DNA of 64,000 nt, taken from the IMG/VR virus record IMGVR_UViG_3300037333_000056, positions 9,660 through 73,659 of that record; one strand, given 5' to 3'. Positions within the stretch are counted from its first letter, which is position 1; the number at the start of each line of letters is the position of its first letter. The position numbers and the translations under genes were made by a program. The DNA comes from a virus. Positions 6,557-40,759 of the stretch are shown here, in pieces. Under the pieces are notes generated by a model. The model saw only the letters and a program-made list of their open reading frames with translations, made no database searches and was not told where the DNA came from.

Positions 6557-6618
6557 TGACTAAGCAATTAACATTAGTGAAGGATAATAAATACACTAAT
6601 AATAAAATTGAAAAATAA
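6556..6618 (+). pseudogene. Truncated MxKQ-family remnant (20 aa)
   Basis: TAATG overlap, AAAGGA RBS, MTKQLTLVKDNKYTNNKIEK*. Confidence 0.5.
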
Positions 6619-6652
6619 GTTACAAAAAAGCTTTTAAAACAAGGAGACTAAA

Positions 6653-7191: not shown

Positions 7192-7193
7192 AT

Positions 7194-7394: not shown

Positions 7395-8268
7395 GAATGG
7401 AATAGAATACGAGTTACCAAGCGTTACACTATTGAATGTTGCTGGATTAGGAATATCTGAATTTGCTGGGAGAACAGCATACAATAGCTTTGACAAATCA
7501 GAAAACAGTGCAATAAAAGACCTAGATGTACTATTGACAGAAAACGAAATTAAAGGCGTAGATTTAGATGTTTCTATTAAGAAAGTAAATGCAGTTGAAC
7601 ATTCAAACTTGCTAGATAGTTTAGCATGGGTGCATCATCATCATAGCGTGCTAGAGCAATGTGAGCTCTGGTTCTCAGTAAAAGGTACAAGCAGAGGAGT
7701 ACTGCAGGAGCATAGCAGGCACAGACATCAGGAGCTTACAGTCCAATCGACAAGATATACAATGTCATCTGTAATCAATGCGTTTATTGCATCGTACACA
7801 AGATACAATAGCACTAGCACAATAACAGCAAAAGGAATGTTTAATAAACTTGTAATTGAATTAAATATGTTTGTTATTGCAGATAAATATATGATTGAAA
7901 TAGAGTCAAACTCAATGTATGACAAATTATTGTATCAGCTGAGAGTATTAGGAGAAGATAAATTTATTGAACTTGCAACATCAAAAAACATGAGGGAAAA
8001 CGGAAGTCTAGATCTTGAAACTACGATTGATATATTTGATGCACTTGAGCAATCAAAACAGGTTAGAAATATTGGAGACAACTTCAAACATATAGTAACA
8101 GACAACTGGAAGGTTGATATGGTATTTAAGATGAATCTTAGGTCACTAAAAAACTACTTGACATTACGAGACTCAGGATCAGCTTATTTCCTAATGAAAG
8201 AATTAGCTATTGCAATCAAAGAAGCTACTCCTAAAAACTACTTAGATTTAATTATTAAACAAAAGTAG
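7378..8268 (+). CDS. thyX: Flavin-dependent thymidylate synthase
   Basis: HHSVLE, SRGVLQEHSRHRHQELTVQSTRY (RHRx7S), NLRSLKNYLTLR; start at ATG 7378 after AAAGGA. Confidence 0.9.
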   Translation: MKTINKNGIEYELPSVTLLNVAGLGISEFAGRTAYNSFDKSENSAIKDLDVLLTENEIKGVDLDVSIKKVNAVEHSNLLDSLAWVHHHHSVLEQCELWFSVKGTSRGVLQEHSRHRHQELTVQSTRYTMSSVINAFIASYTRYNSTSTITAKGMFNKLVIELNMFVIADKYMIEIESNSMYDKLLYQLRVLGEDKFIELATSKNMRENGSLDLETTIDIFDALEQSKQVRNIGDNFKHIVTDNWKVDMVFKMNLRSLKNYLTLRDSGSAYFLMKELAIAIKEATPKNYLDLIIKQK

Positions 8269-8277
8269 AAAAATGTT

Positions 8278-8778
8278 ATGTCGTATAATTACATAAGAAC
8301 AATTAATGAATACTTAGAACAAAAGAAGAAGAAAGGAACTACAGCAGGAGGAAGAATGTCGTTCAGCAATGATGTTCTATATTCGTATGACTCAGTACTA
8401 GCTATAATTGATAAGAAAAACAATATATTGCTTATTGACAACAGTATAAGCAATATATCGAACACATCAAGAAAACACGCAAGGATATTGCTAAGTGAAA
8501 ATATGGGGCACGAATACTCAGTACTAGCAATAGCGTACATAAATAACTATAGAGAATCAGCACGTATATTGGGTGATAACATAGAGCACTGCATACAAAA
8601 AGCAAATAGAGCAAGAACAATGCATACTAAAGAGAAATGGAAAGAAAAATCTATTAGCAAATATATGATGTTGAAACTATTATCAAATACTTATTTAGAT
8701 AAAAGAACAAAAGAGTATAGACTTAAAGATAAAGCATTTAAATTGCTATTTGAAAACAATATGCTTACAGTACAATAA
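8278..8778 (+). CDS. Hypothetical protein
   Basis: 166-aa ORF in operon. Confidence 0.75.
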   Translation: MSYNYIRTINEYLEQKKKKGTTAGGRMSFSNDVLYSYDSVLAIIDKKNNILLIDNSISNISNTSRKHARILLSENMGHEYSVLAIAYINNYRESARILGDNIEHCIQKANRARTMHTKEKWKEKSISKYMMLKLLSNTYLDKRTKEYRLKDKAFKLLFENNMLTVQ

Positions 8779-8790
8779 TAAAGGACAAAT

Positions 8791-9966
8791 ATGAACAAAA
8801 CTGAAATTGCAATTATAAAAAACAACATTAATGCACAACTAGAAAACAAAGAAATTGCACCATTATTTATTAGTGGTGCACCTGGAATAGCAAAAACAAC
8901 AACAATTAAGCTTATAGCAGAAGAGTTAGATATGAATGTATCATCAATTTCTGCACCAACACTTTCAAGCGAGGTGCTAACTGGATTACCAGACGACTAT
9001 TTGGAACCAAAACTTGACAAATATACTGTTGACGGGTCAAAGGCTATTGCAACAAGATGGTCAATACCAGAATTAATTGCTGACGCAAATAGACTAGCAG
9101 AGAGCAAACCAACAATTCTATTGCTAGATGATTTTCATATGATAGGTTCTCACTTACAGTCTTACTTTTTTAAGTTACTACTAGAACGTTCAATTGGAAA
9201 CTATAAGCTTTCGGATAACGTAGTAATCTTGGGAACAATGAATAGCTCGGAGGAAGCAGGATTTTCAAACATTAACTCAGCAGTACGCAATAGAATGTCT
9301 ATTCTTGAAGTAGAATTAAATTTTGAACACTGGTTCGAGAGCTATGGGAAAAGATTGCATTATCTTGTAGCGTCATATCTTAAGGCTAAGCCTAGCAAGA
9401 TAACAGAACCAGAGTCAGTAGACATAGAAGGATATTCTACAGCAAGATCATGGTCTGCACTGTCTCATGAATTAAACTATATTGATAATGACTTCATAGT
9501 TAATAATGCAGAAAAGTTATGTGCAATGCAACATTCAAAATCTGCAGCTAAATCATTTGCATCTCACGTTGCAAAGGTGAATGCAATTAACTTTGAAAAT
9601 ATAGTTTCTGTGAGAAGCATCATAAATATTAGAAACTTGTCAGACCCTATTGCATCTATTTTGTATTCATATATAGTTAACTTTATTTATACAGTTGAAG
9701 ACGGAATATATCTAATGGAACTGATTGATGAAAATATTAAAGATAGGACTTTTATTGGATTTCTAATGGGTGAACTATACACATTGTACACACAGGAAGA
9801 CAAAAATACTGATGGAATAAGACTTGTTATTGACAAGGTTCTTGGTACAGATGCAGACAAAAAACTATACACAAATACATCTGATGCAAAATTTAAAAAA
9901 GCAGAAAAATATGTATTTAAAAATAAGGACGAAGTGATGGATATTGCATCACAATATTTAATTTAA
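8791..9966 (+). CDS. MoxR-like AAA+ ATPase (N4 gp24-like)
   Basis: GAPGIAKT Walker A, LLLDD Walker B, SAVRNRM arginine finger, STARSW. Confidence 0.85.
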   Translation: MNKTEIAIIKNNINAQLENKEIAPLFISGAPGIAKTTTIKLIAEELDMNVSSISAPTLSSEVLTGLPDDYLEPKLDKYTVDGSKAIATRWSIPELIADANRLAESKPTILLLDDFHMIGSHLQSYFFKLLLERSIGNYKLSDNVVILGTMNSSEEAGFSNINSAVRNRMSILEVELNFEHWFESYGKRLHYLVASYLKAKPSKITEPESVDIEGYSTARSWSALSHELNYIDNDFIVNNAEKLCAMQHSKSAAKSFASHVAKVNAINFENIVSVRSIINIRNLSDPIASILYSYIVNFIYTVEDGIYLMELIDENIKDRTFIGFLMGELYTLYTQEDKNTDGIRLVIDKVLGTDADKKLYTNTSDAKFKKAEKYVFKNKDEVMDIASQYLI

Positions 9967-9976
9967 AGGCAAGATA

Positions 9977-11380
9977 ATGAGTACAGAAGAAATAAAAAAA
10001 CAATTCGAACAAGATACTGAGAGACTATTATATACAGAACTAGCAAAGAATTTAAATTTGCTAGTTGGGACAAACAAAACATCAGCAGCCTCTCTAGGAT
10101 TATTTCTTAGTCTACCAATTAAAGTAGAACTTAGAAAGATGCAAGATGAGGTTCTTGTGTCGGCAAAAAGAAAGAAAATACACAACAGTGTGACTAGCTA
10201 CATCAAGCATGACGACACAACAAAGGTTATTATAGTATTTTACTACTCAAAAGACTCGCAGATCAAGAAGTTCAATAAGATGCTTGAAAAAGAGTATTCT
10301 TTTGTGTATTTAACATACTTGTATGCAAGAGAAATGATGAGAATCAGTATGAACCACAACACTAAAGCTCACTATGATTTTATGTCTAGACATATTTCTT
10401 ACGTACAATCGAATTTAAAACTTTTTGCAGTAAATACATGCTCATATTATATTGTAAATAAATTCATCTACAAACTTATGTCGACTAGCTTCACATCAAA
10501 AGATGTAACTAATGTTTTCGCGAACCAACTATTCACTACTGCATATGACAATCTGACAGATATAGAAATACTAAAAGAAGTAGAGCAAAATATCTTACAC
10601 AATACTGTAGTGCTAGATGAAAACTTATTTCAACTTGTTCTTGAGGAGGAAAACATATTACTCACAAATCATGAACTAGTGAATGATGAATACGACGAAC
10701 ATATTGTAGACCTAGGTGAATCACTTAAACAAACGATAAAGCAATACGGAAGAGGAACTGCATCTGCTGAGATTTTCGGAGAAGCATTCACTGCAAAAAA
10801 AGTAAAGGCAGGATGGTTTAAAAAGTTAAAAAATACATTTAGTAGACAAGTATACTATGCGACAAATGATTATTTTACATCGTGGTCATCAATCAATTCA
10901 ACATACAGAAAAAAGTTTAAGTCTCCAAAGCATAAATTTGAAGAGCATAAACTAAATGTAATACTTTCAATTGATCATTCTGGTTCCGTGCTTACTGAGG
11001 AACTACAAAGGTTATACGGACTTATTGAATCAAAAGCAAAGCATATCGGAAAACTTACTGTACTAATCCACGATACTGAAATCATTAAAGAGTTTGTTTT
11101 ATCTGGTTCTAGCATTAAGACTGACCAACAATTCAAGGCAGCACTTGCAACTAGATATGGAGCAGGAGGAACATCTCATTATAATGTATTTAAGCGAGTG
11201 GATGAGATTGTTACAGAACCAGAAAAGACAATTTATATGTCATTTAGCGATAATTACTCAGACATTCCACAATCACTAGATAAGTATCAAGTTATTAAAA
11301 AACTATCTCCAATATGGATATGTTCTATAGATAATCATCTAAATGCATCATGTGGTGGAACAAATATAACACTGAAGTAG
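9977..11380 (+). CDS. vWA-domain protein with degenerate metallopeptidase region (N4 gp25-like)
   Basis: IDHSGS MIDAS, GAGGTS, FSD; directly follows the AAA+ gene. Confidence 0.8.
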   Translation: MSTEEIKKQFEQDTERLLYTELAKNLNLLVGTNKTSAASLGLFLSLPIKVELRKMQDEVLVSAKRKKIHNSVTSYIKHDDTTKVIIVFYYSKDSQIKKFNKMLEKEYSFVYLTYLYAREMMRISMNHNTKAHYDFMSRHISYVQSNLKLFAVNTCSYYIVNKFIYKLMSTSFTSKDVTNVFANQLFTTAYDNLTDIEILKEVEQNILHNTVVLDENLFQLVLEEENILLTNHELVNDEYDEHIVDLGESLKQTIKQYGRGTASAEIFGEAFTAKKVKAGWFKKLKNTFSRQVYYATNDYFTSWSSINSTYRKKFKSPKHKFEEHKLNVILSIDHSGSVLTEELQRLYGLIESKAKHIGKLTVLIHDTEIIKEFVLSGSSIKTDQQFKAALATRYGAGGTSHYNVFKRVDEIVTEPEKTIYMSFSDNYSDIPQSLDKYQVIKKLSPIWICSIDNHLNASCGGTNITLK

Positions 11381-11401
11381 AGAATTTAAAAAAGGAAAAA
11401 A

Positions 11402-12397
11402 ATGATTGTACACGGGATAAATATCGATGAAGTTGTAAAGCTTATACCTAAGTCAGGAAGCAAGACATCACCTAAAGACGACAAATACAATATGACATAT
11501 AGACTTGCTTTGCTATCAGAAATGAACAGAGTATATACGTTAAGAAAATTTACTGGATACAATATAGATATTGCAGAGGCGAGAAATGACGCAGTGAAGT
11601 ATTGGATGATAGATGGCGGAGTGCAGTACAAGAACGATGCGAAAGATAACAGATGGAGGTTTAGATTTAAAAACAGCACAGAACAAAAACTTAAAGAAGT
11701 GGAAGATGCAATAGCATCAAAATGCTTAGACTCACAGCTTAAATACTTGCCAAACTCAATTACATACAGTAAAATACACAAAATAAACAGAAAAAAAAGC
11801 AAGGAACTAGATATTTCTCTAAATAACTTCTCACTTAGTATGTTTAAAAGCAAAACAAAAAATAAAAATTTTTCATCTACAGAAGTAATGACATATATAG
11901 AAAAGCTAATAGTGGAAAATAACGAAGTAGATGCACATGGTAAAGAAGTAGAGATTCTTGAAGAATATATTAATTATATGCTTGACAATACAAAAACTGT
12001 ATCATATGAGCTAATAAATGTTCTGTCAAAATTAACATATAAATATAAAGATACTATAAAAATAAATATTGGAGTGTTATCAATTGGAGCGATAAATAGA
12101 TACACTCGTAAAGACAATAATAAATTTTTAACTCAAAATAAAATATTAAACATAACATCGTCAACTCCTATATCAACAAGATCTTCAAAGCCAAAAGAAA
12201 AGAAATATCATGGAGAAGAATATTATATTTACGCATTATTTCTTGAAATGTATCCAGAGTATCCAAAGTGTAAAGAGTTAAAAGACTGGTTGTATAAAAA
12301 CATAAACTTATCGGAACATAAATATAAACGAATGGACAATGCAATAGCTGAAGTAAATAAAAGAATAGATAGCACACAAAGAAGGAAACAAAAATGA
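11402..12397 (+). CDS. Hypothetical basic protein
   Basis: 331-aa ORF, AAGGA RBS. Confidence 0.8.
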   Translation: MIVHGINIDEVVKLIPKSGSKTSPKDDKYNMTYRLALLSEMNRVYTLRKFTGYNIDIAEARNDAVKYWMIDGGVQYKNDAKDNRWRFRFKNSTEQKLKEVEDAIASKCLDSQLKYLPNSITYSKIHKINRKKSKELDISLNNFSLSMFKSKTKNKNFSSTEVMTYIEKLIVENNEVDAHGKEVEILEEYINYMLDNTKTVSYELINVLSKLTYKYKDTIKINIGVLSIGAINRYTRKDNNKFLTQNKILNITSSTPISTRSSKPKEKKYHGEEYYIYALFLEMYPEYPKCKELKDWLYKNINLSEHKYKRMDNAIAEVNKRIDSTQRRKQK

Positions 12398-13227
12398 TAC
12401 ATGCAGATTTAAGAGATGACATAGTAAATATTGACAAGTTTAAGTATATGTCATACATAAAAAAAATAAACAACATGAAAACGAAAAAAGAAAGAACAGA
12501 ATTCATTACAATGTTGTCATGGGTAATATATAAAACTGATAAAGCTGAATCATTTTCAGAGTACACAAGGATTACGTCACTATGTTTAAGCAGTAAAGAT
12601 TTAAATAAATTTATAATGAGATACAAACTATTTAAACTACTGTATTCAAAAAGCAGACTTGCTACAGAGCCACGTGTTGTAGATAAACTAGCACACAGAA
12701 TAGATAAGGTATTTACATGTGGACTATTGACTCACGATATAGATATTAGCCCAAAAGAATTTATGTCTATATTTGAATTTGGAGGAACTATAGATATTGG
12801 GAGAAAGGAAATAGGTGTTGACGTAATGTGTGAATTCATACATAAGATTGAAAATGTATATGACGAAAACAAACTTATTGAGAATTTCATATTAGGCACT
12901 ATAATTAGTGAATTTGATGGAGGAAGCGGAATAAGATATGGAAGAGTAGAACAGAACAGTAGGTATAAAGAAATAGATATTCTAAGGAAAATAGGATACG
13001 TAAAACAATATTCATCTAACAACATAGCTAAAAATGGTAAAAAGTACATAGAGATACTACTAAAGAGTCTTGAGCAAAAGTTAAGTAGCATTGATACAAA
13101 AGAAGATATTACATGTGAAAACATAAAGGAACTAAAAATTTCACTATCGATGTATAATAAACATATAGTTGATGAGTTAAGAAGAGTAAGAGAATATGAT
13201 AAATTATTTGGAGATATATATGCATAA
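12394..13227 (+). CDS. Hypothetical protein
   Basis: 277-aa coupled ORF. Confidence 0.8.
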   Translation: MIHADLRDDIVNIDKFKYMSYIKKINNMKTKKERTEFITMLSWVIYKTDKAESFSEYTRITSLCLSSKDLNKFIMRYKLFKLLYSKSRLATEPRVVDKLAHRIDKVFTCGLLTHDIDISPKEFMSIFEFGGTIDIGRKEIGVDVMCEFIHKIENVYDENKLIENFILGTIISEFDGGSGIRYGRVEQNSRYKEIDILRKIGYVKQYSSNNIAKNGKKYIEILLKSLEQKLSSIDTKEDITCENIKELKISLSMYNKHIVDELRRVREYDKLFGDIYA

Positions 13228-13666
13228 TATTAAAGAAATTAAGTTAAAAAATTCTGAAGGAACAGAGCTTGTAACTAAAAAGCAGACACTATATGGATAC
13301 AAAAAATTTTTTGTTAATACAGGAAACAAGATAAACATATACAAGCAAATGATATTGCACACAAAGAGGTCAAATACAAAAATATGGAAATTTTTAACTG
13401 AGACTGCAAATCTAGAGGACGATGTTATTTTAATAGTTGATGAATTTGAGGAATTAAAAAGAAAAGCATTAAAAGAAAAGGAGAGTATTATAGAAAAAAA
13501 GCTAAAATCAGCTCTCGACATTAAAGACTTTATTTTATTCCTTAATTACAAAGGAGCTGATGTAACAAATATGTATTATGAATATATAGGCAGAATTCAG
13601 AGTGATGATGTTCCACACAGAAACACTAATAATCAACACGTAGAAACAGCAATAGAGGAATTATAG
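13220..13666 (+). CDS. Hypothetical protein
   Basis: GGAG RBS before ATG 13220. Confidence 0.75.
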   Translation: MHNIKEIKLKNSEGTELVTKKQTLYGYKKFFVNTGNKINIYKQMILHTKRSNTKIWKFLTETANLEDDVILIVDEFEELKRKALKEKESIIEKKLKSALDIKDFILFLNYKGADVTNMYYEYIGRIQSDDVPHRNTNNQHVETAIEEL

Positions 13667-14058
13667 TGACAAAGAAAGAACTAGAAGATAGAGTATCAGA
13701 ACTAGAGACTGAACTAATCTTCGAAAGAAAGAAAATATCAAGAATGTCTGACACAATAATTAGTGTAACAGAGCATATGAAAGAGCTATCGAAAAAAAAT
13801 ATAAAATCTTCGTTATCAACTAACAATGCAGAACCAGAAAAGAAAAGAAATTGTAAGCACGGGTTCTTCGTAAAAGAAGGAAATGAAACAGATACATCGA
13901 ATATGCTATTCATAGAAGTGCTTGGAGATCTTGATATGTTAAAAGATTCAGAACAAAAGTGTAAGACACTATTTACATTCAAGCCAGAGGACCTACAGAA
14001 CTGGTTCGCACAGATAAGTAAAATAATGAAGGAGAAGCAAGCAAAATGCAAAACATAA
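13666..14058 (+). CDS. Hypothetical protein
   Basis: GTG start overlapping the upstream stop. Confidence 0.7.
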   Translation: MTKKELEDRVSELETELIFERKKISRMSDTIISVTEHMKELSKKNIKSSLSTNNAEPEKKRNCKHGFFVKEGNETDTSNMLFIEVLGDLDMLKDSEQKCKTLFTFKPEDLQNWFAQISKIMKEKQAKCKT

Positions 14059-28379: not shown

Positions 28380-31300
28380 TTATCCTACTATCTGAGGGAA
28401 AAATGCATCGCTACTTAGTAGTGGGGCATTTATAAAATCTAACCCATTTCCATCAAAATGCTTTCCAAACATCTTAACAATTATGTTGCTATCAATTATT
28501 GTATCTGGATGGATATCAATAAACTGTTGAATACTTGTACCAAATGCAACTCCAGCTGGATTAGCCTTTACAGTAGCAAGTATTACTTTCTGAATCCTCA
28601 TCCAGAATGATGGGAATAGCAGAACACCATAATCACTTAGTGCTTTTACTTCTTTAGGCATATTTATTTTGTAATCAACAAATGATTCAAGAGTAATTTT
28701 TATTGCATCATGCTCGCTTTTGCCTTGAGCAATAAGAGTGTCTAGTAATATTTTCCTTGACACTATATCTATCGATTGCACAGCAAACGATCCAAATCTT
28801 ACCATTGCACTATCTGGCGAGGCAATAAACTCTGATATGTATTTTGCCATATCTCCAGTCTTCTTGTTGTGCTCTATTCTATCTCCAGACTCAATTAGAT
28901 TATCACCAAAAGATTGCAATGCTTTAAAGTTTTTAGCACTTTTGCCAGCAAACTGCAACAGCGTCTCTACGTTCATGCTTTGGTGACCACTTTGAGATAG
29001 GGCTTTAATAGCTTTTGCAAGACCGTTATTTTTACCATTGCTGTCTTTCAAGAACTTATTTAATAATGATTCTATGTCGTTTTGTAGACCAGAAATAACA
29101 GACTCATCTTTATTCATTACTTCAACTGATATTGATTGCATCATTCCAGTATTTAACATTATTGCCATAGGATGTGTTTTTATTGACTCTTTGACGCGTT
29201 TAAGTTTGTTATCAACATCTTCACCAGAATACTTTTTTATCTCAAGCTCTAGTTGTTTTAGTCTTAGCTTTTCAAGTGATTTCATATCTACTATAGACTC
29301 TTTTATTAGCCTTGGAATTTCTTGAACTGGAACACCATACGCTAGTAATATTGCAACGTTTGATGTTGTGTCTCCAAATATTTTTGGAATATTTGTGATT
29401 ACCCAATGTATTTTGGTTAACTTTACTGCTTGTCTTATAGCAAATGCTGCCTTTTTGAGCGAATCATTATTGCTAAACAACACAGGATCGTTAAACCCTA
29501 TAGCAATGTCTGAAAAATCCTTTCTTACTAGATGAAGATGCTCGTTAATACCACCTACGGTTGTGACATTTGATACTACTTTATATCTGTCTCCTATTAG
29601 TTTATGTGTCTCAAGAACCTCTTTTGCAGTTGAAGAATCTGGCAAGCTTAAAAACAATGGAATATCTTTTGTATCAATATCTGCAAGGTCTTCTTCAAGC
29701 TTATCTATTGACGAACTTGTCTTTAGATATTTTGTCATAGTTTGACTAAGCAATTCATCTCTTGCAGCTTGAGTATTATGTATTTCAATTGACCTACCAT
29801 ACGACCTTACAATAGCATCAGCAGGGTTCTTGTTTAGTCCGAGAAGATCTAATTGATCAGGCGTAAGAACTATTTTTTGAAATGAGCCTTTTAAAGTTTT
29901 GATGCTGTATACATTATTCATGCCTTTCAGCTCTTTATCTTTTGGAACAATTATGTCTTGGTTGAGGTAGTGGACACTTGTTCCTGCTCCTTCTTGGCTT
30001 GTTTGTTCGACTCTGTCTCTGTATACTATTCCGTAGTCTTTTGATGTAGGCTTTTGAAGTATTCTCCATCCAGATTCTTTTGTGTAATCATTATGGTTAA
30101 GATCTTTCTTTGTTACAATAGCAAATTCTTTTGGAACAGTAAATGATTCATATAACAGGTTCTCTTTTCCAAGCATTTTATCTTTAGTTGTAGCATACAT
30201 CTTATTGTGTGAGCCAAACATTCCAGCGGATAGTGTCATTAATTCTGATGCAAATTTTTTATTCTTTCTTAATAGCTTAAATGCATTCTCGTACTCTCTT
30301 ACAGTATTTCCTTCTTTATTTATACGTGTATTCTCTTTTATGCTATATAGTGCAAGAAGTGCTCCTAGATTTAGACGCTCTGCACTATCTTGTGGATGCA
30401 TTTGTGCAATATTGTATGCGTCAGTGGTTCTTGATGGAGTTCTTTTGCCAGCGTATATCTGTGCCATTGCTCTTATTCTGTGTATCTTGCTTGTATTACC
30501 TATTTTAGACTCATATTCTTTTATGTATTCATCAATTGCTATTGTTATATCTCCTGCACGCTTATTTATAAGATTACTCATTATCTCGTTAGAACCAATA
30601 AGGTAGAAAATTGGAGATCTTGCAAAGGTATAGTATATGTTATCCTTGTCTCTGTCTGACATATGCTCCATAAGTTTATTTAGTTTAGATATTTTATTAT
30701 CTTCGAATTGCTTACGTTTTTGTGCACTTGTCATTGTGAGCGTAATTGCACTGTTTAAGCTATCAAATGTTCCTAGCCTACCCCAAGTATCAAGATATCC
30801 TTTTAGTGACTGTAGCCAGTCAGCTGAACCCCAATAGTCTTCTGCTCTATCAAATTGCATTTTATATACGTCAAAATTTTGATACATAAACTCATGAGCT
30901 TTTGCAACTCCAGATTCAGTCTTTGGACCTATAGTGCTTGTATATATATCTCCAAGGCCATTTGATATACTCTTGTTTAACATAAATAGAGATTTATCAA
31001 GGATTGAATCAATATCAACCTTATGTTCTTTACCTTTATATACATAGCTCATTGTTTCTTTTAGAGATTCTTCAGCTTTCTGTTTTGTATCTTTTGGCTG
31101 AGAATCAGTACTAGAACCAGCGTGCACGGTATTTGTTATGTCGTCTTCTTTTTTGTTTTTATCTTGTTTTTTTGCCTTGCCACTACTAGATGAACTCTTG
31201 TCATACTTTTCATTATATGTTCCGTACACTACATCAACAGTAGCGTCAAGTGTGTATTCTTTCCCGTCTAAATGAGTTATTTTATTATAGTTTTCTCTTG

Positions 31301-34300
31301 CATGCTTTCCTGTCATAAAAGGTTTTATTCCATTGTCTTTATTGACATAATCTGTTATATGAAGAGGCGTTCCATCAGGTTGCCTAGAATACACTGTTCC
31401 ATTTGCCTCAACAAGAACAGTTCTGTATTCCATATCATCATTCTTAAAGTGCCCGATAACAGTTACTTTAGCATTATCACCTTCCTTGCCAGGAATTTCT
31501 GGGCCATAACTATACTCGCCCTCAGGATTAAAATTAAATGTTATATGCTTTCCATCACTAAGCTTGAACTGACTAAATAATTTAATCTTGTCTCCATTTA
31601 TAAACAGTGCATTAAATTTATTGCTGATCTTTTTGCGGATATTTACACCTTTACCTGCGTTGTTAAATCTTACTCCGGATGCCATAACTCCATGTATTGC
31701 AAGCTTAAGTATGTCTGCATCTACAATTTCTTTTGAACTAATCTCGTTGAATTGCTTATTCGTTACTTTTGATATTCTACCTTTTATATTGTTCCATAGT
31801 TTGATAACATTATTTTTAAGAGTTGTAGATGTAATGTTTCCACTCTGCTTATTTATATGTTTTATTGCAGCATATGTCAATTTTGCCGTAGAGTCCTCTG
31901 CTACCATTACTGCTTCAAATTCAGCAGTCCTATGCAGTTCGTCTTCTATCTTAAGCACGTCCTGTATACGTTTAGGAAGCTTATTTATTACTTTTTCGTC
32001 AAGTCTTGAAAGTATCTCTAGTGTCTTTTTTATATATTTTGCATTTTGATCAGATTTTCCACTCGCAGAATATAAGTACCCAACAGTAGAATAGTGAACT
32101 ATCTCGTGTGCTATTGCAGTTTCAATATCTAGGCCAGAACCAGACAGTGATTCTTTTGTACCTATAGTAATTCCATGTACGCTAGGGTCATACGAGAATT
32201 CAGAACCAGATGTGAGAGACTTAACATTTTCACTTTTTATGAATTCAGATATTATTTGATTATCTTTATACTTATTTATGTCAAGTGTTTTGTTCTCTGC
32301 TCTTTTTACTAATTCTCCTATAATATTAGATAGGACTTCAACATCGTGCGATGCATCATGTGCCTTACCATCTTTTTTTACACCTAATAGACTTTCTACT
32401 GCAGATTGCGTCCTATCAAACTTTGTTCTGTTGTTACCTTTGTTGTCTACAAATTCAACGTCATCTTCATTTGAGTCTCTTAGCTCGCTAACAGCAAGCA
32501 ATTTTGCATCAAATATTTCAAATTTGTTTGATAGAAGTTCATCTACGCCAGAATATGATGACAATATATCGAAGTCAGACTTTATACCATTGTATGCAAT
32601 TATTGGAGTCTTTCCTCCATCAACGCTTAATGATTCAAGAGCGTCTCGTATTGATTTTGCAACACTATCCTCGTTGTATTCTTTTGCTGAGTCAGGTATG
32701 TCTCGCTTATATTCACTGTACTCTTTCATATCAAGTATAGCATCGAAGTCATTGCTTGACGGCTTATATTCGAACGTTACAGGATCTCCATCTTGTACAA
32801 TTGTGCCATTTTCATATTTATATTTTCTTGCGTACAGCTGTAGTAGTTCTTTTGATTTTCCGCCTTTAGCATGGTCATATCGTCTTTCGTCGCTAGGGTC
32901 AAATGTATTTTCAATATCTATTACAACAACAGGTTCTCCACTAGAGACAATATCAATTATCTTGTTAGCGTGATCTGTTACAAACTCTGATATTTTATCT
33001 CCATCTATAAATGGTCTATCTTTATGTCCAGTAGGAGTTATTGCATATGTATCAAGATATTCACTGCTTATTTCGTCTTTCCATGACGATGTATCTGCAT
33101 CATTGTTGTTGCCGTTGTTATTATTATCATTTTCTGTAACGTCTATATAAGTGTCTTTTTTATCTGATTCTATATCATTATTATCCAACCTATAGTTTTC
33201 TTTGCCTGCAATATTGTTTCCATTAAACCCAAACAATAAGTGGTTCTCAGACATACCAGCATTATATACATACTTCTTGATGAACTTTCTTTTTTTATCT
33301 ATTTTTTCACTGACAGAATCAAGATTGTTTGTGTTGTCTATAAATATTGACTTCTTTATTTGCTCTGCAGAAATAATATTTTCATCATGTCCAACATCTG
33401 CTATCTGATCCTGAAATGAATCATATAGCAGAACCAGTTGCTCGGATATATCATATTCATAGTTTATTTCAGATGTAAGTTTTTGATACTCAACATCATA
33501 TATGTCACCATACACTGGTACACTATGTATAGCATCATATATTCCAGCTGTACCATTCTGAAGTACATTTAGCAGGTCATCACGATCATTCTCAAGTGAC
33601 CTGATGTACTCATTGTCAGATCCATCAATCCTGTTTAGTTCACGTACCTCTAGGTTTATATCAAGTATCTTTTGCTTAATTATGCGTCTTGTGTTTCTGT
33701 GTGCTAACTTTTCTAGTCCTGAATCTATGCTATGTATACCAGATACTGCTGGAATTAATCCATTTGATAGCTCCTTCTTTATAGGAACATATCCAGCTCT
33801 GTCAGATTCTACAAGAACCTGTCGCTTAGAAGTTATTGGCATTCCGTACTGCTTAATCATTTTCATGTACCATGCTCTATACTCAGGAGTACCTTTTGCA
33901 GTAATCTTTAAGTTATCTTCACTATGTGTTTTGCCATATAAGATATGGTCAGGATTACGTTCTACTCCATTGTCATCAGTATTACTTTCTGTTATTATCA
34001 TCCATGTTCCTGCAGGAATTATCATCCTAGGGAACCTGTCGGCAGCATCATGATAGTGTTTACTTGCGTCAGAATAGAATGTGTCTATATTTCTGTAATA
34101 TGAGCTTAGATCATTCTTGTATGCAGTAGTAGCTTGACCAAGCGTGCTATCAAGTAGCCCAGCTAGCCTATCAACTAACCCAACACCTTCCTGTGCAAAG
34201 TATGCTTGAATTGCAAGATAAACTCCAGGTATAGCAGCAAAATCTAATTCAGTATGCTTAGATAGATCTAAAACATTTTCGTACTTATGAAGTTCTGCAG

Positions 34301-36782
34301 ATTTATACAGATCTTCGTCAACTTCTTTTATTGATGAAACAAGTAAGTTTAGTGCTGAAACCCTATCGTTAGTGCTTCCACTTGTTGCGGCAGTATCTAA
34401 GTACTCAAATACATCATTAGTCATGTCTCTTGATGCAGACGCTCTTGTCCCAGCAGCCCCTGCTTGATAGTTTTTAACCATAGTAACTGGCTTAAGCATG
34501 TCGCGTATAGATCCAAATATTCCAAGACTTGTAAACTTAGACATTACAGTAAAAGTTGATTCATCGGTATCTTCTTCTTGAGAGTTTGCATGTTCATCGT
34601 CTACTGCTTTTCTTAGTATTGCATATGCATCTGCAAGATATTCATCTTCACTAAGATCTTTTCCAGAATCCTTTGCAATCTTCATTTTGATAAGTAAATC
34701 TTTTATCATCTCATCAGCCACATCATTAGAGCCTAGTGCTTGATATAATGTCAATATTACACCAGAAGCAGTTGCATCAGACTTGGTTCTGTAATGAGTG
34801 GTTATTTTGTCAGATCCTGATTCTTTTGCACTTCTAATATCAGATATTGCAGATAAAGAGTCTATTGCTGACCAAACGCTCTTGGTTTTGAATTTAAACT
34901 TAGTTGCTTTTCCGGAAACCATTATTTCATTTTTAGCAAGTATCTTCATTAGCGTTGACATTGCTGACACTCTTTGATCACTAGTTAACTCTTTATTCTG
35001 AGTCTTTCTAAATAGCTTAACAAGATTATCTAATGGCTTATTTATTCCTTCGTTTTCTATAGCTTGATACCGCTTTATCTCTTCTTGTATTTCACTTGAT
35101 CCTATGAATTCGTCGACTATAGAACCGAACACCTTGTAATATGCAGATGTTCCAACTTTAAAGCTTGACTCTCCGCCAGAAACTATTGACCTAGACATTT
35201 TGTCTGATATTTCATTAAGTACATTTGATGTTGGCATTGAACGACTATTTCTTACTATCTTATGCTTCTTTACATATTTTTTCCCATCTTTGAACCTGTC
35301 GAATGTAATAAGTAGATTTGCTAGTGGAGTCTCTTTAGAGATTGACATGCCGACCTCATTATCTACTCTTTCCTGCGTCAACGCACCATCATATGAACCA
35401 AAAATCTTATTCTTAAGTGCTACATCTTTTATTCCAATAGATTCATACACTTTATTTAGAGAGACCTTATCATCTATTCCAGAATCATTATTAAACACAT
35501 TGCTCATACTTGATAAAAGGTCGTTGAATATTGGGTTAATCATATTTTCTGTTTTTGAAAGACCAACCTTGTCTTCAGTAAATATTTTTGCATACTCATC
35601 TGGAACTCCAAGATTTTGCTTTCCATCATTGCCAGATCCTTGCTCTACAGTAAATAATTGATTTTTTAATTCAGTAGGAACTCTATATTTTTCATTTGGA
35701 GGGATTGTATCGTCTGCGGCATCAAGTTCTTCTTTTTTTATTAGCTTCTCAATATAGCTATTGTTTGTTGGTGCTTCCATATTTTGAGTTGTTGTCATCT
35801 TATTTATTGCTTGTGATGCGTTATACGTTGCCTGCAAAACTGGATATGCAGTTATTTTTTTAGTATTAAAAGAACCAGTGTTTAGAATCTCTGCAACAGT
35901 ATTCTTGTCTTCAGGTTTTGTTGATTTTCCTAATAGCTTTGTTGTGTTTATATATATAGCATCTGCACCGTCAATAATTGGTTCTACACTTATATTGCCT
36001 CCAAACATATCTTTAAAGTTATTATTTAGTGTTTGTCCATTCTCTATTACTTTAACTAACCCATTACCGTATTCATCTACTGCAACCTCTGTTAGTGCAT
36101 TAACTGCAGATTTTCCTATTGATATATACGCTTCATTAGCAGATATTGTGTCTGTCTCAAACTTGATTCCAGATGCTATTGCTATCTGCCTACCTATTGC
36201 TCCATACAGATTAATTGAACTAAGAATTGTTGTTCCATACTCAGATTTTAGAGTATCTTTTACAGACAACTTATCTTCTGGAGACAAGTTGAGATTCTGT
36301 AATATATGATTTTCTGCTTTTCCAGCATTTGCTATTGCATTAAATGCTATACCTACAGCACGCATAGTTGAACCTATAGTTCTTATCTCCTTATTTAGGA
36401 GCTCTTCATTTTCATCTTTTGATAACTTATCATTATACTTATATCCTACTGGATCTACTCCATCTATATCTAGTATTCCGTCGAATAATATATTTGCTGA
36501 GGTGTTTCCTATCTTTGTTCTTGACTTGTTTATTGCACTATGTATAGCAGATTTTATTTTTGGAATCTTTACTTCGCTATCAAGCTTAGACATAATCTCT
36601 TCTTTAATTGAAGCATCAATATTTGACATCATGTATACATAGTCTTCTGCTTTAATAGACTGAATATTCCAAGCAATAGGAGTGCTGCTTCCTGAACTAT
36701 TATCCAATACTGCAGATTTCATTCTTATTTTGCCAGTCTTAGTATTTAATAATATCTTTGCATACTCTTTACATTTTCTCAT
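28380..36782 (-). CDS. Virion-encapsidated single-subunit RNA polymerase (N4 vRNAP-like) with extra domains
   Basis: 2800 aa; RNSR, motif A KSDATASG, motif B RDMLKPVTMVKNY, IHSID, motif C GIYDAI; plus DEDDh, HEIVH and 2x HIT motifs. Confidence 0.9.
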   Translation of the reverse strand: MRKCKEYAKILLNTKTGKIRMKSAVLDNSSGSSTPIAWNIQSIKAEDYVYMMSNIDASIKEEIMSKLDSEVKIPKIKSAIHSAINKSRTKIGNTSANILFDGILDIDGVDPVGYKYNDKLSKDENEELLNKEIRTIGSTMRAVGIAFNAIANAGKAENHILQNLNLSPEDKLSVKDTLKSEYGTTILSSINLYGAIGRQIAIASGIKFETDTISANEAYISIGKSAVNALTEVAVDEYGNGLVKVIENGQTLNNNFKDMFGGNISVEPIIDGADAIYINTTKLLGKSTKPEDKNTVAEILNTGSFNTKKITAYPVLQATYNASQAINKMTTTQNMEAPTNNSYIEKLIKKEELDAADDTIPPNEKYRVPTELKNQLFTVEQGSGNDGKQNLGVPDEYAKIFTEDKVGLSKTENMINPIFNDLLSSMSNVFNNDSGIDDKVSLNKVYESIGIKDVALKNKIFGSYDGALTQERVDNEVGMSISKETPLANLLITFDRFKDGKKYVKKHKIVRNSRSMPTSNVLNEISDKMSRSIVSGGESSFKVGTSAYYKVFGSIVDEFIGSSEIQEEIKRYQAIENEGINKPLDNLVKLFRKTQNKELTSDQRVSAMSTLMKILAKNEIMVSGKATKFKFKTKSVWSAIDSLSAISDIRSAKESGSDKITTHYRTKSDATASGVILTLYQALGSNDVADEMIKDLLIKMKIAKDSGKDLSEDEYLADAYAILRKAVDDEHANSQEEDTDESTFTVMSKFTSLGIFGSIRDMLKPVTMVKNYQAGAAGTRASASRDMTNDVFEYLDTAATSGSTNDRVSALNLLVSSIKEVDEDLYKSAELHKYENVLDLSKHTELDFAAIPGVYLAIQAYFAQEGVGLVDRLAGLLDSTLGQATTAYKNDLSSYYRNIDTFYSDASKHYHDAADRFPRMIIPAGTWMIITESNTDDNGVERNPDHILYGKTHSEDNLKITAKGTPEYRAWYMKMIKQYGMPITSKRQVLVESDRAGYVPIKKELSNGLIPAVSGIHSIDSGLEKLAHRNTRRIIKQKILDINLEVRELNRIDGSDNEYIRSLENDRDDLLNVLQNGTAGIYDAIHSVPVYGDIYDVEYQKLTSEINYEYDISEQLVLLYDSFQDQIADVGHDENIISAEQIKKSIFIDNTNNLDSVSEKIDKKRKFIKKYVYNAGMSENHLLFGFNGNNIAGKENYRLDNNDIESDKKDTYIDVTENDNNNNGNNNDADTSSWKDEISSEYLDTYAITPTGHKDRPFIDGDKISEFVTDHANKIIDIVSSGEPVVVIDIENTFDPSDERRYDHAKGGKSKELLQLYARKYKYENGTIVQDGDPVTFEYKPSSNDFDAILDMKEYSEYKRDIPDSAKEYNEDSVAKSIRDALESLSVDGGKTPIIAYNGIKSDFDILSSYSGVDELLSNKFEIFDAKLLAVSELRDSNEDDVEFVDNKGNNRTKFDRTQSAVESLLGVKKDGKAHDASHDVEVLSNIIGELVKRAENKTLDINKYKDNQIISEFIKSENVKSLTSGSEFSYDPSVHGITIGTKESLSGSGLDIETAIAHEIVHYSTVGYLYSASGKSDQNAKYIKKTLEILSRLDEKVINKLPKRIQDVLKIEDELHRTAEFEAVMVAEDSTAKLTYAAIKHINKQSGNITSTTLKNNVIKLWNNIKGRISKVTNKQFNEISSKEIVDADILKLAIHGVMASGVRFNNAGKGVNIRKKISNKFNALFINGDKIKLFSQFKLSDGKHITFNFNPEGEYSYGPEIPGKEGDNAKVTVIGHFKNDDMEYRTVLVEANGTVYSRQPDGTPLHITDYVNKDNGIKPFMTGKHARENYNKITHLDGKEYTLDATVDVVYGTYNEKYDKSSSSSGKAKKQDKNKKEDDITNTVHAGSSTDSQPKDTKQKAEESLKETMSYVYKGKEHKVDIDSILDKSLFMLNKSISNGLGDIYTSTIGPKTESGVAKAHEFMYQNFDVYKMQFDRAEDYWGSADWLQSLKGYLDTWGRLGTFDSLNSAITLTMTSAQKRKQFEDNKISKLNKLMEHMSDRDKDNIYYTFARSPIFYLIGSNEIMSNLINKRAGDITIAIDEYIKEYESKIGNTSKIHRIRAMAQIYAGKRTPSRTTDAYNIAQMHPQDSAERLNLGALLALYSIKENTRINKEGNTVREYENAFKLLRKNKKFASELMTLSAGMFGSHNKMYATTKDKMLGKENLLYESFTVPKEFAIVTKKDLNHNDYTKESGWRILQKPTSKDYGIVYRDRVEQTSQEGAGTSVHYLNQDIIVPKDKELKGMNNVYSIKTLKGSFQKIVLTPDQLDLLGLNKNPADAIVRSYGRSIEIHNTQAARDELLSQTMTKYLKTSSSIDKLEEDLADIDTKDIPLFLSLPDSSTAKEVLETHKLIGDRYKVVSNVTTVGGINEHLHLVRKDFSDIAIGFNDPVLFSNNDSLKKAAFAIRQAVKLTKIHWVITNIPKIFGDTTSNVAILLAYGVPVQEIPRLIKESIVDMKSLEKLRLKQLELEIKKYSGEDVDNKLKRVKESIKTHPMAIMLNTGMMQSISVEVMNKDESVISGLQNDIESLLNKFLKDSNGKNNGLAKAIKALSQSGHQSMNVETLLQFAGKSAKNFKALQSFGDNLIESGDRIEHNKKTGDMAKYISEFIASPDSAMVRFGSFAVQSIDIVSRKILLDTLIAQGKSEHDAIKITLESFVDYKINMPKEVKALSDYGVLLFPSFWMRIQKVILATVKANPAGVAFGTSIQQFIDIHPDTIIDSNIIVKMFGKHFDGNGLDFINAPLLSSDAFFPQIVG

Positions 36783-36793: not shown

Positions 36794-39700
36794 TTATCTT
36801 TTAATACAGAAGGTAAATTCTTCTTCAATCAATGCCTGTTTTTCACTATCTACAAGCTCTTCATCTGATATTATATCGTACAACTCTTCAATCTCGTATT
36901 CATTTTCAATCTTCTCATTGTGTGATAAATATACTATTTCATCTTTGTTCTTTTTTATATTTTTAATCTCTTCTTTTAACTCACTCTTCCTTCTTATCTG
37001 TTCTATGTCTGCGTTTCCAGAGTTTATTTCCTGTTCGATTCCAAGCAACTCACTTTCAATTTTGTATTGCTTCTTATCTAGCTTTTTCATCTCTTTATCT
37101 ATCTGTTTTGAGCTCTTGATTAGTTTAGTGTTTCTATATATCTTTTTTTGCTTACTTGTTAGCTCAGTGTCTGTTGCATTAACGCCTCTAGCATTAATTA
37201 CTCTTCTAAATATCTCAGCCTCTTTGCTTGTTATATTCTTTGCATCTTCTGCTACATTTATAAGATTATGAACAAATTCAACCTCTTGCTTTGATCTGAT
37301 ACTGCTCTTTTTTGCATACTTCAGTATAGTATTATATGCATCAATATTATGGTTGTCCATAAGATTTGCATCTATGATTTCATCGTTTTTTGCAGATTTT
37401 AGTCCAGTTGCAGCTTCGCCTATTATTGCAACAAGTGTTTTGTTATATTCTTTTGGACTAGAGTTTTCATCTGAGTCAAAAACTATATTTAGACTGTTTA
37501 TCGCAGACTTTAGGTTCTCAGCTTTCTTTTTGTCTAAACCAGAGCTGTTGTATAGTTTTTCGGCTACATCCTGCAGGAGACGCATTCCTTCATCTTGAGA
37601 TGTTATTGCAAGGCTATATGAACGCATTATTCCCTGTATTTGGTCAATAACTTCGTTTGAATACTTATATGTACTCTTTTTTGCAACCTCTGATGATATA
37701 TTTTTAAGAACGTCTCTCGTGTGTATATTCTTTGATGAGTTTATCCTAGTAGCAAAGTCTTCACCATCCTGCTCCTCAACTTTTGCTATTTCTATTCTAG
37801 CAGCATTTCTTGTTTTAAATACTGATTCTATTGCAGCTTTCATTGCCTTACTTGCAGACGGATCATTAAAGGCTTCCTTTAGCGACTCATCTGAATATGT
37901 TCTTATATTCTTTTCTATCTTGCTTTTTGTCCCAAATGATCTCAATTTATGCATGAATGTTTTAGGGTCACTTTTGTACTCGTTTACATCTATCTTGTCA
38001 TTACTAAACTCATTTACAGCAGAACCTGACGACAATGCTTCTTGTCTCTTTATCTTGTGTCCATCTAACCTATCAAGCCTTGCTTGAATTGTTTTTGCTA
38101 GAGTATCAGCTTTATTGTTTATAGCGTTTACTTGTTCATGAATAATACCATTGTCTTTATCAAATACACTCTTTTCTACTGTGTATAGTGGACTATACTT
38201 GCTGTTTCCTACAGTATGTAATCTATCCATTGAATATATATTTGTTCCAGGAAGAAATATTTCTCTACTAGTGCCACTGGTTCTTGTATTGTTGTCAATT
38301 TTATGCATATCTCTTTTTTGCTCTGGAGTAGCATTAAGATACAGTTCCTTCATGTATGCCTGACGCTCATCTGTATCCATAAGACTTATTTTCTTCATAA
38401 CTTCTTCATCAACAGCACCAGAATCACCAAGAATTTTGTCTTTAACACCTAAAGCGTTAAGAGTTTCAGTGGTTATAAAACTTGATTTTGAAAACTCTTC
38501 AGCAGCTTTTTCGTTATACTCATCATTATTGTCGAACACTGACAGCATAGATTGCTCTCTTATTGCATTACCTAAGTCTCTTACTTCAGGTATTGCTGAG
38601 TCTGTTAGCTCTGATATGTCTTTTGCTTTTTTTGTTGCTTCTACTGCGTCTTTCATTATATGCCAGTTATCTTGCATAACTTCAATATCTTTAGACTCAT
38701 TTGCAGCATAAAAATCAAAATCAGTTTGATCCATATTGTTAACCATCGTATCGATGTTTGCTTTAGCTCTTTTTTCTGCAATTTTTGTATTAACAGATTT
38801 TGCAAAACTTTTAGCAAAAGACAAAGAGCTTGAAGGAGCTTTTGGCACCATATGCATCAATCCACCTGCTCCAGCACCAGCTATTGCAGCTTGAAACGCT
38901 TGGCTTCTATTCTTTTCGTCACGCAGAATGTCTTCGACATCCTTTTCGCTTATTCCATATTGTTGTCCAATTATCTCTCCCCATGTCTGAGTATACTCTT
39001 GAAATCCTTCCTCAGTCATACTTGCTAATGCAGAACCAGTTTTATTCAATAGCTTGTTTGTAAAAAATGGCTTTAGAGTATCTGGCATTTTGTTATATGA
39101 CGACTTTAATATTGACGTTGTTGGCTTTGTTGCTTTTGACAACTTACTTATTCCAGATACGTGATCAAAGGATAGCTTATCAAGAAGTGTAAAAGGCATC
39201 TCGAATGCATACAGTGCTGTAGCTTCTCCAACACTAACTGATGGATCTTCTCCTGCTTCAAGCTTTGCCTTTATTCTCTCATCAAGTATTCTGTTTGTGT
39301 TTACTAAGTTTATTGTCTCGACTCCAGCACCTTTAGCAAGCAAGTTTAAGCCTTTAAGCATCTGCTCAGAGTCTTTGTATTTATTGTATACGCTCAACTC
39401 TCTAGGCTTAAACGATGCCTTTCCTACATCAACTATTTTCTTTATATCAGATGCTGATGCCCCAGCAGCCTTTGCTTTATTTACGTTTGCAACCAATCTT
39501 AGTGCTCCAGCTGTACCTGATACTTCACTTACGCCTATAGACATACCAGCCATGTACGGTAACGACTCAGCTACGAATGACGGTGCAGACTGTGCAACAC
39601 TCCATAGTCCAGATGCTATATCGCCACGATTAAACGCAGCTTCAGCTTCTACAACTTTACTTTGAGCGTAATGCCTATCATATCCAACAAATTTATCTGC

Positions 39701-40759
39701 CCATTCTTGCTGATAATCATTAAGAAGCGTGTTGTCATCACCAGGAAGCAGGTCAAGCAATGCGTCTGCTGTTCCAGTTACGAGACCAAGTGCACCAGCC
39801 TGAAACGCGTCAACGAAGTTACTATCCCATGGACGACTCCTACTGTGCTGATACATAAATTTTGATCGTTCAAGGTTTCTAGCATAATCTTCACTTGTTC
39901 CAGTATCTAATCCTAGAAGATCTTGATCATATAGTTCTGTTTTCCCTGCACCAAAATTTATACCTGATGCTTCATCTCTAGACTTTAGCCCATCAGGAGT
40001 CATAACCTTGTCAGATGACATTACTCTATGGTCAAGGTTCTCGTCAAGTGCATGCCATTTGTTTTCCCAATCGAGTGCTCCAGCAAATTTCTTTTCACCA
40101 ATAAGTTCCCATCCGTCTTGAGTATATTGGTCTTTGTATCTTCCGTATGCACCATCATGTGCATATCCAAGCTTATAGATATATTTTGTGCTTCCATCGT
40201 CATTATATCCATCAAATTTCCTAAGGTTATATACTCCACCTTCAGCATCAGGATTATCTTCTGCATTATTATATTGATCTATTAAGTCTTGCCTTGTTAA
40301 CCCTTTAGCTCCAATAAAGTCTTTATTCTGCATATTATACTTGCGACCATTTCGTTCAGCCTGAAATCCATCTCTATGGGTTATCCAGTCCCCTTGACCA
40401 TAATCGAGTACATTTTCTGTTGCTTCTAAGAACCAGTCTACGGCGTGTATCCCAGCATTAGCAACTTCTTTTGCTCTGAGCATTGAGTCGCTGTCATTAA
40501 TGAGTGTTCCATCTTGCTCATACTTGAGATCAGCTTTTCTATATATTGACTTACGCTTTAACTCTGCAGCTCTAGCAAGCTTTGTTCTCCTGTCAAATTG
40601 TGCATCTAATTGTTCTATGTCATATTCAGATTGAGCTATTGCTTGCTGTAAATATGGGTCAATTGAAACATCAGGCTCTTTGTCGTACGGAGTATACTCT
40701 CCAGTAGTATCATCTATATATCCTTGTGGTTCATCGTCGTATATGTAGTCTTCTGCCAT
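36794..40759 (-). CDS. Large internal virion/ejection protein, probable detached vRNAP N-terminal region
   Basis: 1321 aa; EEGFQEYTQ and AAIAGAGAGG segments typical of injected proteins; 11 nt upstream of vRNAP. Confidence 0.65.
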   Translation of the reverse strand: MAEDYIYDDEPQGYIDDTTGEYTPYDKEPDVSIDPYLQQAIAQSEYDIEQLDAQFDRRTKLARAAELKRKSIYRKADLKYEQDGTLINDSDSMLRAKEVANAGIHAVDWFLEATENVLDYGQGDWITHRDGFQAERNGRKYNMQNKDFIGAKGLTRQDLIDQYNNAEDNPDAEGGVYNLRKFDGYNDDGSTKYIYKLGYAHDGAYGRYKDQYTQDGWELIGEKKFAGALDWENKWHALDENLDHRVMSSDKVMTPDGLKSRDEASGINFGAGKTELYDQDLLGLDTGTSEDYARNLERSKFMYQHSRSRPWDSNFVDAFQAGALGLVTGTADALLDLLPGDDNTLLNDYQQEWADKFVGYDRHYAQSKVVEAEAAFNRGDIASGLWSVAQSAPSFVAESLPYMAGMSIGVSEVSGTAGALRLVANVNKAKAAGASASDIKKIVDVGKASFKPRELSVYNKYKDSEQMLKGLNLLAKGAGVETINLVNTNRILDERIKAKLEAGEDPSVSVGEATALYAFEMPFTLLDKLSFDHVSGISKLSKATKPTTSILKSSYNKMPDTLKPFFTNKLLNKTGSALASMTEEGFQEYTQTWGEIIGQQYGISEKDVEDILRDEKNRSQAFQAAIAGAGAGGLMHMVPKAPSSSLSFAKSFAKSVNTKIAEKRAKANIDTMVNNMDQTDFDFYAANESKDIEVMQDNWHIMKDAVEATKKAKDISELTDSAIPEVRDLGNAIREQSMLSVFDNNDEYNEKAAEEFSKSSFITTETLNALGVKDKILGDSGAVDEEVMKKISLMDTDERQAYMKELYLNATPEQKRDMHKIDNNTRTSGTSREIFLPGTNIYSMDRLHTVGNSKYSPLYTVEKSVFDKDNGIIHEQVNAINNKADTLAKTIQARLDRLDGHKIKRQEALSSGSAVNEFSNDKIDVNEYKSDPKTFMHKLRSFGTKSKIEKNIRTYSDESLKEAFNDPSASKAMKAAIESVFKTRNAARIEIAKVEEQDGEDFATRINSSKNIHTRDVLKNISSEVAKKSTYKYSNEVIDQIQGIMRSYSLAITSQDEGMRLLQDVAEKLYNSSGLDKKKAENLKSAINSLNIVFDSDENSSPKEYNKTLVAIIGEAATGLKSAKNDEIIDANLMDNHNIDAYNTILKYAKKSSIRSKQEVEFVHNLINVAEDAKNITSKEAEIFRRVINARGVNATDTELTSKQKKIYRNTKLIKSSKQIDKEMKKLDKKQYKIESELLGIEQEINSGNADIEQIRRKSELKEEIKNIKKNKDEIVYLSHNEKIENEYEIEELYDIISDEELVDSEKQALIEEEFTFCIKR

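Follow-up and report, generated by a model that had tools for sequence, protein, structure and literature searches.

What does a phosphoesterase-like domain do in the middle of a phage virion RNA polymerase (vRNAP)? The question is raised by a 64,000-nucleotide stretch of viral DNA, here called the window, which covers positions 9,660 to 73,659 of the IMG/VR record IMGVR_UViG_3300037333_000056 (73.7 kb, 88% complete). An open reading frame (ORF) of 2800 amino acids (aa), P0001, occupies positions 28380-36782 of the minus strand as a single open frame. An earlier note, made from the sequence alone, had proposed that a 2H phosphoesterase domain is embedded in this polymerase at window positions 31230-31590, where the plus-strand frame is non-coding and has many stops. 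Our data indicate that residues 1727-1870 of P0001 make up a compact, helix-poor domain with the predicted fold of 2H phosphoesterases, and that this domain is an insertion in a polymerase of the N4 type. We consider it probable that the domain is an active 2H phosphodiesterase which, inserted in an injected vRNAP, acts as an early counter-defence effector.

The two motifs on which the proposal was built, KHITFNF and LHITDY, are found at aa 1745-1751 (window 31530-31550, minus strand) and aa 1807-1812 (window 31347-31364, minus strand). Their histidines, H1746 and H1808, are 62 residues apart, and GIKP follows at aa 1818-1821. We compared this arrangement with composition-preserving shuffles of P0001. 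The protein contains 7 Hx[TS] motifs, and the number of pairs 40-110 aa apart equalled or exceeded the observed number in 38% of the shuffles, while a stricter H-[ILVM]-T pair was reached in 1.5%. Because so many shuffles reach the observed count, the loose Hx[TS] pair is weak evidence when taken alone. The main support for a 2H domain is therefore its conservation and not the motif pair itself.

We searched 1.84 billion cluster representatives exhaustively by HMMER, with aa 1660-1880 as query, and obtained 25 proteins, all of which matched only aa ~1727-1870. These were either solo proteins of 103-200 aa or giant proteins of 634-2185 aa. Word-based searches and viral contigs supplied further members, which brought the family to about 35 proteins with pairwise identities of 30-55%. 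In a 19-sequence alignment (A1) H89 and T91 are invariant, and H27 and T29 are absent only from one N-terminally truncated member. Across the 35 members H1746, T1748, H1808, T1810 and G1825 are each present 35 times, as are an aromatic residue (Y/F) at position 1736 and F/Y at position 1751. Q1801 and the proline of GIKP (P1821) are kept in 33 of the 35, P1753 in 32 and the glycine of GIKP in 27. The invariance of the histidines and threonines is unbiased only in A1, since the segments of the 35-member set were picked by a pattern of two HxT motifs. We conclude that this is a conserved domain of ~125-140 aa that occurs in solo and in giant phage proteins. A tblastn search of 50,697 phage records with the domain region found no phage with the domain, and a scan of bacterial genome contigs with P0025 found no relative. 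A match to Pfam Ntox28 (E 1e-3; 19.6 bits, below the cut-off of 25) covered 40 residues around the second motif and was dismissed as chance.

Structure prediction followed by a Foldseek search, the check that the earlier note had suggested, gave a confident 2H model. The AlphaFold2 model, built with the 19-sequence alignment, had a predicted local distance difference test score (pLDDT) of 84 and a predicted template modelling score of 0.74. Core blocks scored 87-98, and pLDDT fell below 50 past residue 145, in the linker. The structured core (aa 1732-1855) coincides with the interval first proposed. The model consists of seven strands and one helix (model residues 102-111), and each HxT motif lies at the start of a strand. 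The best Foldseek matches in the PDB were the CNPase catalytic domain, goldfish RICH, a fungal tRNA-ligase kinase-cyclic phosphodiesterase (CPD) and a phage phosphodiesterase, with probabilities of 0.9-1.0, reaching 1.0 for CNPase, RICH and Trl1-CPD, and modest E-values; the next unrelated fold, a topoisomerase domain, had a score of 5.5. Also among the PDB matches were the phage BCSR5 phosphodiesterase, rotavirus VP3, Deinococcus CPDase, Acb1, Arabidopsis CPDase, YjcG, a poxvirus cGAMP phosphodiesterase, mouse hepatitis virus ns2, LigT, Usb1, AKAP18 and ASCC1. Among the predicted viral structures of BFVD we found giant-virus RNA-ligase fusion proteins, cyclic phosphodiesterases and Acb1. A language-model search for look-alikes led to a viral cluster partly annotated tRNA_lig_CPD, which we treat as a lead only. 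The predicted structure is thus a bilobed 2H (LigT-like) fold in which each HxT motif sits on a central strand.

We then compared the model with wild-type and mutant CNPase entries by sequence identity over 116 aligned residues. Wild-type entries were 18% identical to the model (21 residues). All 12 of the 12 entries mutated at H230, T232, F235, H309 or T311 were at 17% or lower, and the double mutant H230Q/H309Q was two steps down at 16%, whereas only 6 of the 25 other CNPase entries were lowered (Fisher p 1e-5). Some noise was seen, as 17% was likewise read for the Y168 and R307 mutants and for two of the wild-type entries. In CNPase H230, T232, F235, H309 and T311 are catalytic and base-stacking residues (PMC4643303). 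The drops in identity therefore suggest that H1746, T1748, F1751, H1808 and T1810 superpose on them, so that both histidines, which the earlier note required to form one site, fall on CNPase catalytic positions. Identity goes up to 19% with the V318I substitution and down with G324D, which fits I1819 and G1825 with a two-residue offset. By this offset the GIKP loop would correspond to the CNPase beta5-alpha7 loop (P320/V321).

The domain has an intact catalytic set consisting of a first-strand Y/F, H-x-T-x-x-F, H-x-T, a G-x-x-P loop and a G-x-[R/H] element. With the clade of CNPase, RICH and the fungal tRNA-ligase CPD it shares the two HxT motifs, an aromatic residue five positions past the first histidine (compare the base-stacking F235), a first-strand aromatic (compare Y168) and a proline-containing loop ahead of the helix after the second motif. 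It differs from that clade in size, with ~125 structured residues against ~210 in CNPase, and lacks nearly all of the helices. It also has no detectable sequence-profile similarity to the clade and no ligase or kinase partner, and, unlike those enzymes, it is embedded in a giant virion protein of a phage and its activity is predicted.

The protein that carries the domain was identified from several lines of evidence. The C-terminus of P0001 matches phrog_2206, 'virion RNA polymerase' (E 5e-23 to 5e-26), and tblastn with its last 606 aa matched the vRNAP-annotated genes of 149 N4-like phages. Near P0001 and on the same strand, the window has genes for a portal and a major head protein of the N4 type (phrog_1216, phrog_1357). 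P0001 contains motifs A (D669-ATASGV) and B (R760-x3-K-x7-Y-x2-G) of single-subunit RNA polymerases (RNAPs). These parallel D1556 'DGVTNG' and R1663 'RGIAKNPLTITIYGSG' of N4, a match at the level of motifs only; phmmer with the P0001 RNAP region found no direct match to the solved N4 mini-vRNAP. Sequence searches of the PDB with the RNAP region and with the exonuclease/protease region gave nothing useful. The HEIVH region of P0001 can be aligned with the protease region of N4 gp50 that contains HELVH (aa 2180-2241). Megablast of the P0001 gene against the 50,697 phage records gave no match, and a word-based search among long proteins returned nothing beyond P0001 itself.

Like N4 gp50, the protein thus combines a C-terminal module with an HExxH protease module and with motifs A and B of the RNAP, and its neighbouring genes are of the N4 type. 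In N4, gp50 is a single chain of 3500 aa that lacks both a 2H domain and an HxT pair of this kind, whereas the protein studied here is split into 1321 + 2800 aa and has two extra modules. P0001 is also large and multidomain, has a zincin-like metallopeptidase (MPTase) as its hub and is encoded among virion genes, as expected of a polyvalent protein. From its sequence P0001 is the large piece of a divergent, split N4-like vRNAP and a polyvalent protein, which bears out the earlier assignment of the carrier.

BLASTP against Alteromonas phage PT11-V19, the best cultured relative, gave three collinear blocks, one for the RNAP, one for the protease and one for the C-terminus (Table 1). Between the protease and C-terminus blocks PT11-V19 has 44 aa and P0001 has 232 aa. 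The longer gap is filled by the 2H domain and a Ser/Lys-rich linker; the domain is therefore an insertion.

Table 1. Features of the P0001 locus (window coordinates; residues are those of P0001).
Feature	Residues	Window position	Strand	Basis
2800-aa ORF P0001, by sequence the large piece of a split vRNAP		28380..36782	-	Open frame, phrog_2206, tblastn, N4-type neighbours
Compact 2H phosphoesterase domain (predicted)	1727-1870	31173..31604	-	Structured core aa 1732-1855, window 31218-31589
HxT motif 1, H1746-I-T1748, then F1751		31539..31547	-	Invariant H, T; modelled equivalents of CNPase H230/T232/F235
HxT motif 2, H1808-I-T1810		31353..31361	-	Invariant 35/35; modelled equivalents of CNPase H309/T311
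G-I-K-P loop	1818-1821	31320..31331	-	Precedes the sole helix of the domain
Ser/Lys-rich low-complexity linker	1871-1934	30981..31172	-	Read from translation; no PT11-V19 counterpart
RNAP module	478-798	34389..35351	-	BLASTP to PT11-V19 RNAP (aa 398-714), E 2.5e-8; motifs A and B
MPTase, zincin-like	1510-1703	31674..32255	-	BLASTP to PT11-V19 aa 1041-1225, E 4.5e-4
HEIVH of the MPTase module	1559-1563	32094-32108	-	PT11-V19 equivalent also HEIVH
C-terminal vRNAP module	1935-2751	28530..30980	-	BLASTP to PT11-V19 (aa 1269-2036), E 1e-48; likeness to N4 C-terminus; phrog_2206
DEDDh-exonuclease-like region	1262-1500	32283..32999	-	Motifs IDIEN 1288, SDFDIL 1402, HDASHD 1475
1321-aa ORF, probable N-terminal piece of the split vRNAP		36794..40759	-	11 nt upstream of P0001, same strand

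Other carriers of the domain keep both HxT motifs and combine it with an MPTase, a NADAR domain, a superfamily 1 (SF1) helicase or an RNAP. In a 120-kb viral contig (L003) the N-terminal region and the RNAP share one ORF, and the next ORF has, in this order, the 2H domain (aa 541-685), HEVQH and a C-terminal module. The 2H domain is N-terminal to the RNAP in P0009. It lies upstream of the HExxH module in P0004, P0007 and P0033, and in P0008 the HExxH module is upstream of the 2H domain. The domain thus moves as a module among positions and proteins. A solo copy of 117 aa (L004:6001-6354) was found in a 106-kb viral contig that has a PhiKZ-type major capsid gene. This copy has dUTPase/ThyX genes on one side and the gene of a divergent DnaB-like helicase on the other, with an HNH endonuclease gene adjoining; a second solo locus (L005) held nothing informative. 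No RNA ligase or kinase was found near any copy, including the solo homologues in L004 and L005.

The NADAR domains are those of P0005 (aa 1080-1189) and P0007 (aa 308-448), with Pfam E-values of 1e-15 and 7e-20, and P0005 additionally has a RecD-like SF1 helicase. Such combinations of NADAR and helicase are typical of the mixed effector sets of polyvalent proteins.

Polyvalent proteins were defined by Iyer, Burroughs, Anand, de Souza and Aravind in 2017, starting from the N4 vRNAP (PMC5512222). In that work 2H domains of phage polyvalent proteins are fused to MuF or portal domains and also occur as solo phage proteins; they are never found with RNA ligases, and a role as RNase or in signal degradation was proposed for them. 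The MPTase, a constant partner of N4-like RNAPs, was proposed to release effector domains. The domain described here resembles those 2H domains in lying inside a large multidomain phage protein with a zincin MPTase, in its solo versions, in having no association with RNA ligases and in the proposed early counter-defence role after injection. It differs from them in being fused to an N4-like RNAP and not to MuF or portal domains. The RNAP partners given there are only MPTase, ART, lysozyme and PBECR, and a 2H fusion is not among them, so the arrangement in P0001 is a new architecture within a known theme. Our search of later literature found no fusion of a 2H domain to an N4-like RNAP, including vRNAP with Acb1, and likewise nothing on the BCSR5 phosphodiesterase. 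The domain is an uncatalogued compact 2H family, the comparison with the 2H family of Iyer et al. being by description only. The earlier idea that the domain degrades an immune signal or heals RNA is plausible; a counter-signalling role for 2H domains in phage polyvalent proteins had already been published (PMC5512222).

How would such a domain serve the phage? By homology to N4 the protein would be packaged and injected with the DNA, and N4-like packaging and injection would place the enzyme in the cell ahead of phage gene expression. The adjacent protease may then cut the domain free. The fold points to a 2',3'-cyclic phosphodiesterase as the likely chemistry, and the domain is predicted to hydrolyse, independently of metal, a 2',3'-cyclic phosphate or a related nucleotide phosphodiester of the 2'-5' or 3'-5' kind. 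Possible targets could be an immune nucleotide signal, cyclic phosphate products generated by host RNases, or RNA ends that need repair. The domain would most likely act as an early counter-defence effector against nucleotide second messengers or the products of host RNase-type defences. We rank counter-defence first because of the polyvalent company that the domain keeps (MPTase, NADAR, helicase) and because no ligase was detected. Catalysis, substrate, delivery and proteolytic release are the steps of this account that we infer. The phage anti-CBASS nuclease Acb1 and two viral 2',5'-phosphodiesterases, the C-terminal domain of rotavirus VP3 and coronavirus ns2, which share the superfamily fold, are viral destroyers of host immune nucleotide signals. 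A more far-reaching version is tentative: that these domains represent a new class of phage counter-defence enzyme, both solo and polyvalent, which, when preformed in an injected polymerase, would destroy alarm nucleotides or cyclic-phosphate products before phage transcription begins.

Several points weigh against counter-defence by an injected 2H phosphodiesterase. Judging by N4, each virion is expected to hold few copies of the vRNAP, which would limit the amount of signal destroyed. Packaging and injection of P0001 with the DNA are most likely, but on the analogy with N4 only. The enzymatic activity of the family is a predicted one, and the placing of the two histidines in one active-site cleft of the model comes from an indirect test. 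The nearest fold relatives are enzymes of RNA ends and of 2',3'-cyclic nucleotides, and not Acb1; neither sequence similarity nor close structural similarity to the anti-CBASS Acb1 family was found. The domain is not recognised by any Pfam, PHROG or PDB sequence profile. When 19 members were compared with the curated Pfam 2H families (CNPase, tRNA_lig_CPD, LigT_PEase, 2_5_RNA_ligase2, CPDase and others), none matched at the cut-off, the best being tRNA_lig_CPD at E 0.073 for one member, and the domain is therefore filed at the superfamily level only. Lastly, a ligase could be missing from the record, given its 88% completeness.

The last point bears on RNA end-healing, in which a CPD of the CNPase/Trl1-CPD type would act on 2',3'-cyclic phosphate ends produced by host anticodon nucleases or HEPN RNases, make them sealable by a ligase and so rescue tRNA or mRNA early in infection. 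We regard this as unlikely. Searches of the phage record for an Rnl2-type ligase and for RtcB detected neither, and a search for Rnl1 (PF09511) found no match but carries no weight, since it found none in the control genomes either. The solo homologues in L004 and L005 likewise have no ligase or kinase beside them, and the polyvalent 2H versions never occur with RNA ligases (PMC5512222). If a 2'-phosphate is the product, a Tpt1-type enzyme would be required as well.

Alternatively, the domain may be a Usb1-like 2H exo- or endoribonuclease that attacks host RNA or trims the polymerase's own early transcripts, perhaps together with the exonuclease-like region of P0001. This seems quite unlikely, as the model matches Usb1 much less well than CNPase, the assignment of the exonuclease-like region is unconfirmed and the solo homologues occur without any polymerase. 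Least probable is a domain that is no enzyme, either a structural spacer or binding module keeping a 2H-like fold, as in AKAP18, an inactive 2H-fold binder of AMP that is among the Foldseek matches, or a chance motif pair, as the loose Hx[TS] pair alone would allow, because both histidines and both threonines are invariant and the flanking aromatics conserved in ~35 members only 30-55% identical, and because the domain shifts as a module between positions and proteins.

If the domain is indeed a counter-defence phosphodiesterase preformed in an injected polymerase, it would act in the period that precedes phage gene expression, whereas Acb1, Apyc1 and other phage enzymes that destroy immune nucleotides are normally produced once infection is under way. 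The domain also extends the set of effector modules known on N4-like virion polymerases. At ~125 residues a minimal 2H domain is a useful size for structure-function work, and its solo homologues should be easy to express. The same module at three positions in related giant proteins also illustrates assembly by domain shuffling.

The 1321-aa ORF upstream of P0001 probably encodes the N-terminal part of the split vRNAP. A stretch of it, aa 156-679, matches aa 20-509 of an L003 ORF of 2758 aa (E 3e-45), and that L003 ORF also contains an RNAP motif A; the 1321-aa ORF has no Pfam or PHROG match. PT11-V19 likewise has two genes, a 1000-aa ORF and then a 2082-aa 'RNA polymerase'. The vRNAP is encoded by two neighbouring genes, which are divided at different points in different lineages. 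In the window only the N-terminal region belongs to the first gene, and P0001 is the second. In L003 the first gene (95-8371; 2758 aa) covers the RNAP as well as the N-terminal region, and the second (8381-13987) holds the 2H, protease and C-terminal modules. A two-gene split is also found in L009 (1435-4437 and 4441-10689).

The DEDDh-exonuclease-like region is a second extra module of P0001 that has no counterpart in PT11-V19. Its motifs are VVIDIEN, NGIKSDFDIL and an H-x4-D within KAHDASHDVEVL. It gave a weak profile match only (phrog_192, E 1e-3) and no Pfam match, no close relatives were found in viral contigs, and a single-sequence AlphaFold2 prediction (pLDDT 40) was unusable. An Asn-rich low-complexity run (NDNNNNGNNNDADTSS; window 33100-33200, minus strand, ~aa 1205-1235) lies between the RNAP and exonuclease-like modules. 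This run and the Ser/Lys run after the 2H domain resemble flexible linkers or possible cleavage regions.

Almost every carrier of the 2H domain starts with M-x(1-2)-C. This was seen in P0001, P0002, P0004, P0005, P0007, P0008, P0009, P0031 and P0033, with the variants MGC, MSC, MAQC, MAC and MSNC, and MRKC in P0001. The N-terminal cysteine of P0001 is the sole cysteine among its 2800 aa. The upstream 1321-aa ORF also has a single cysteine, the fourth residue from its end.

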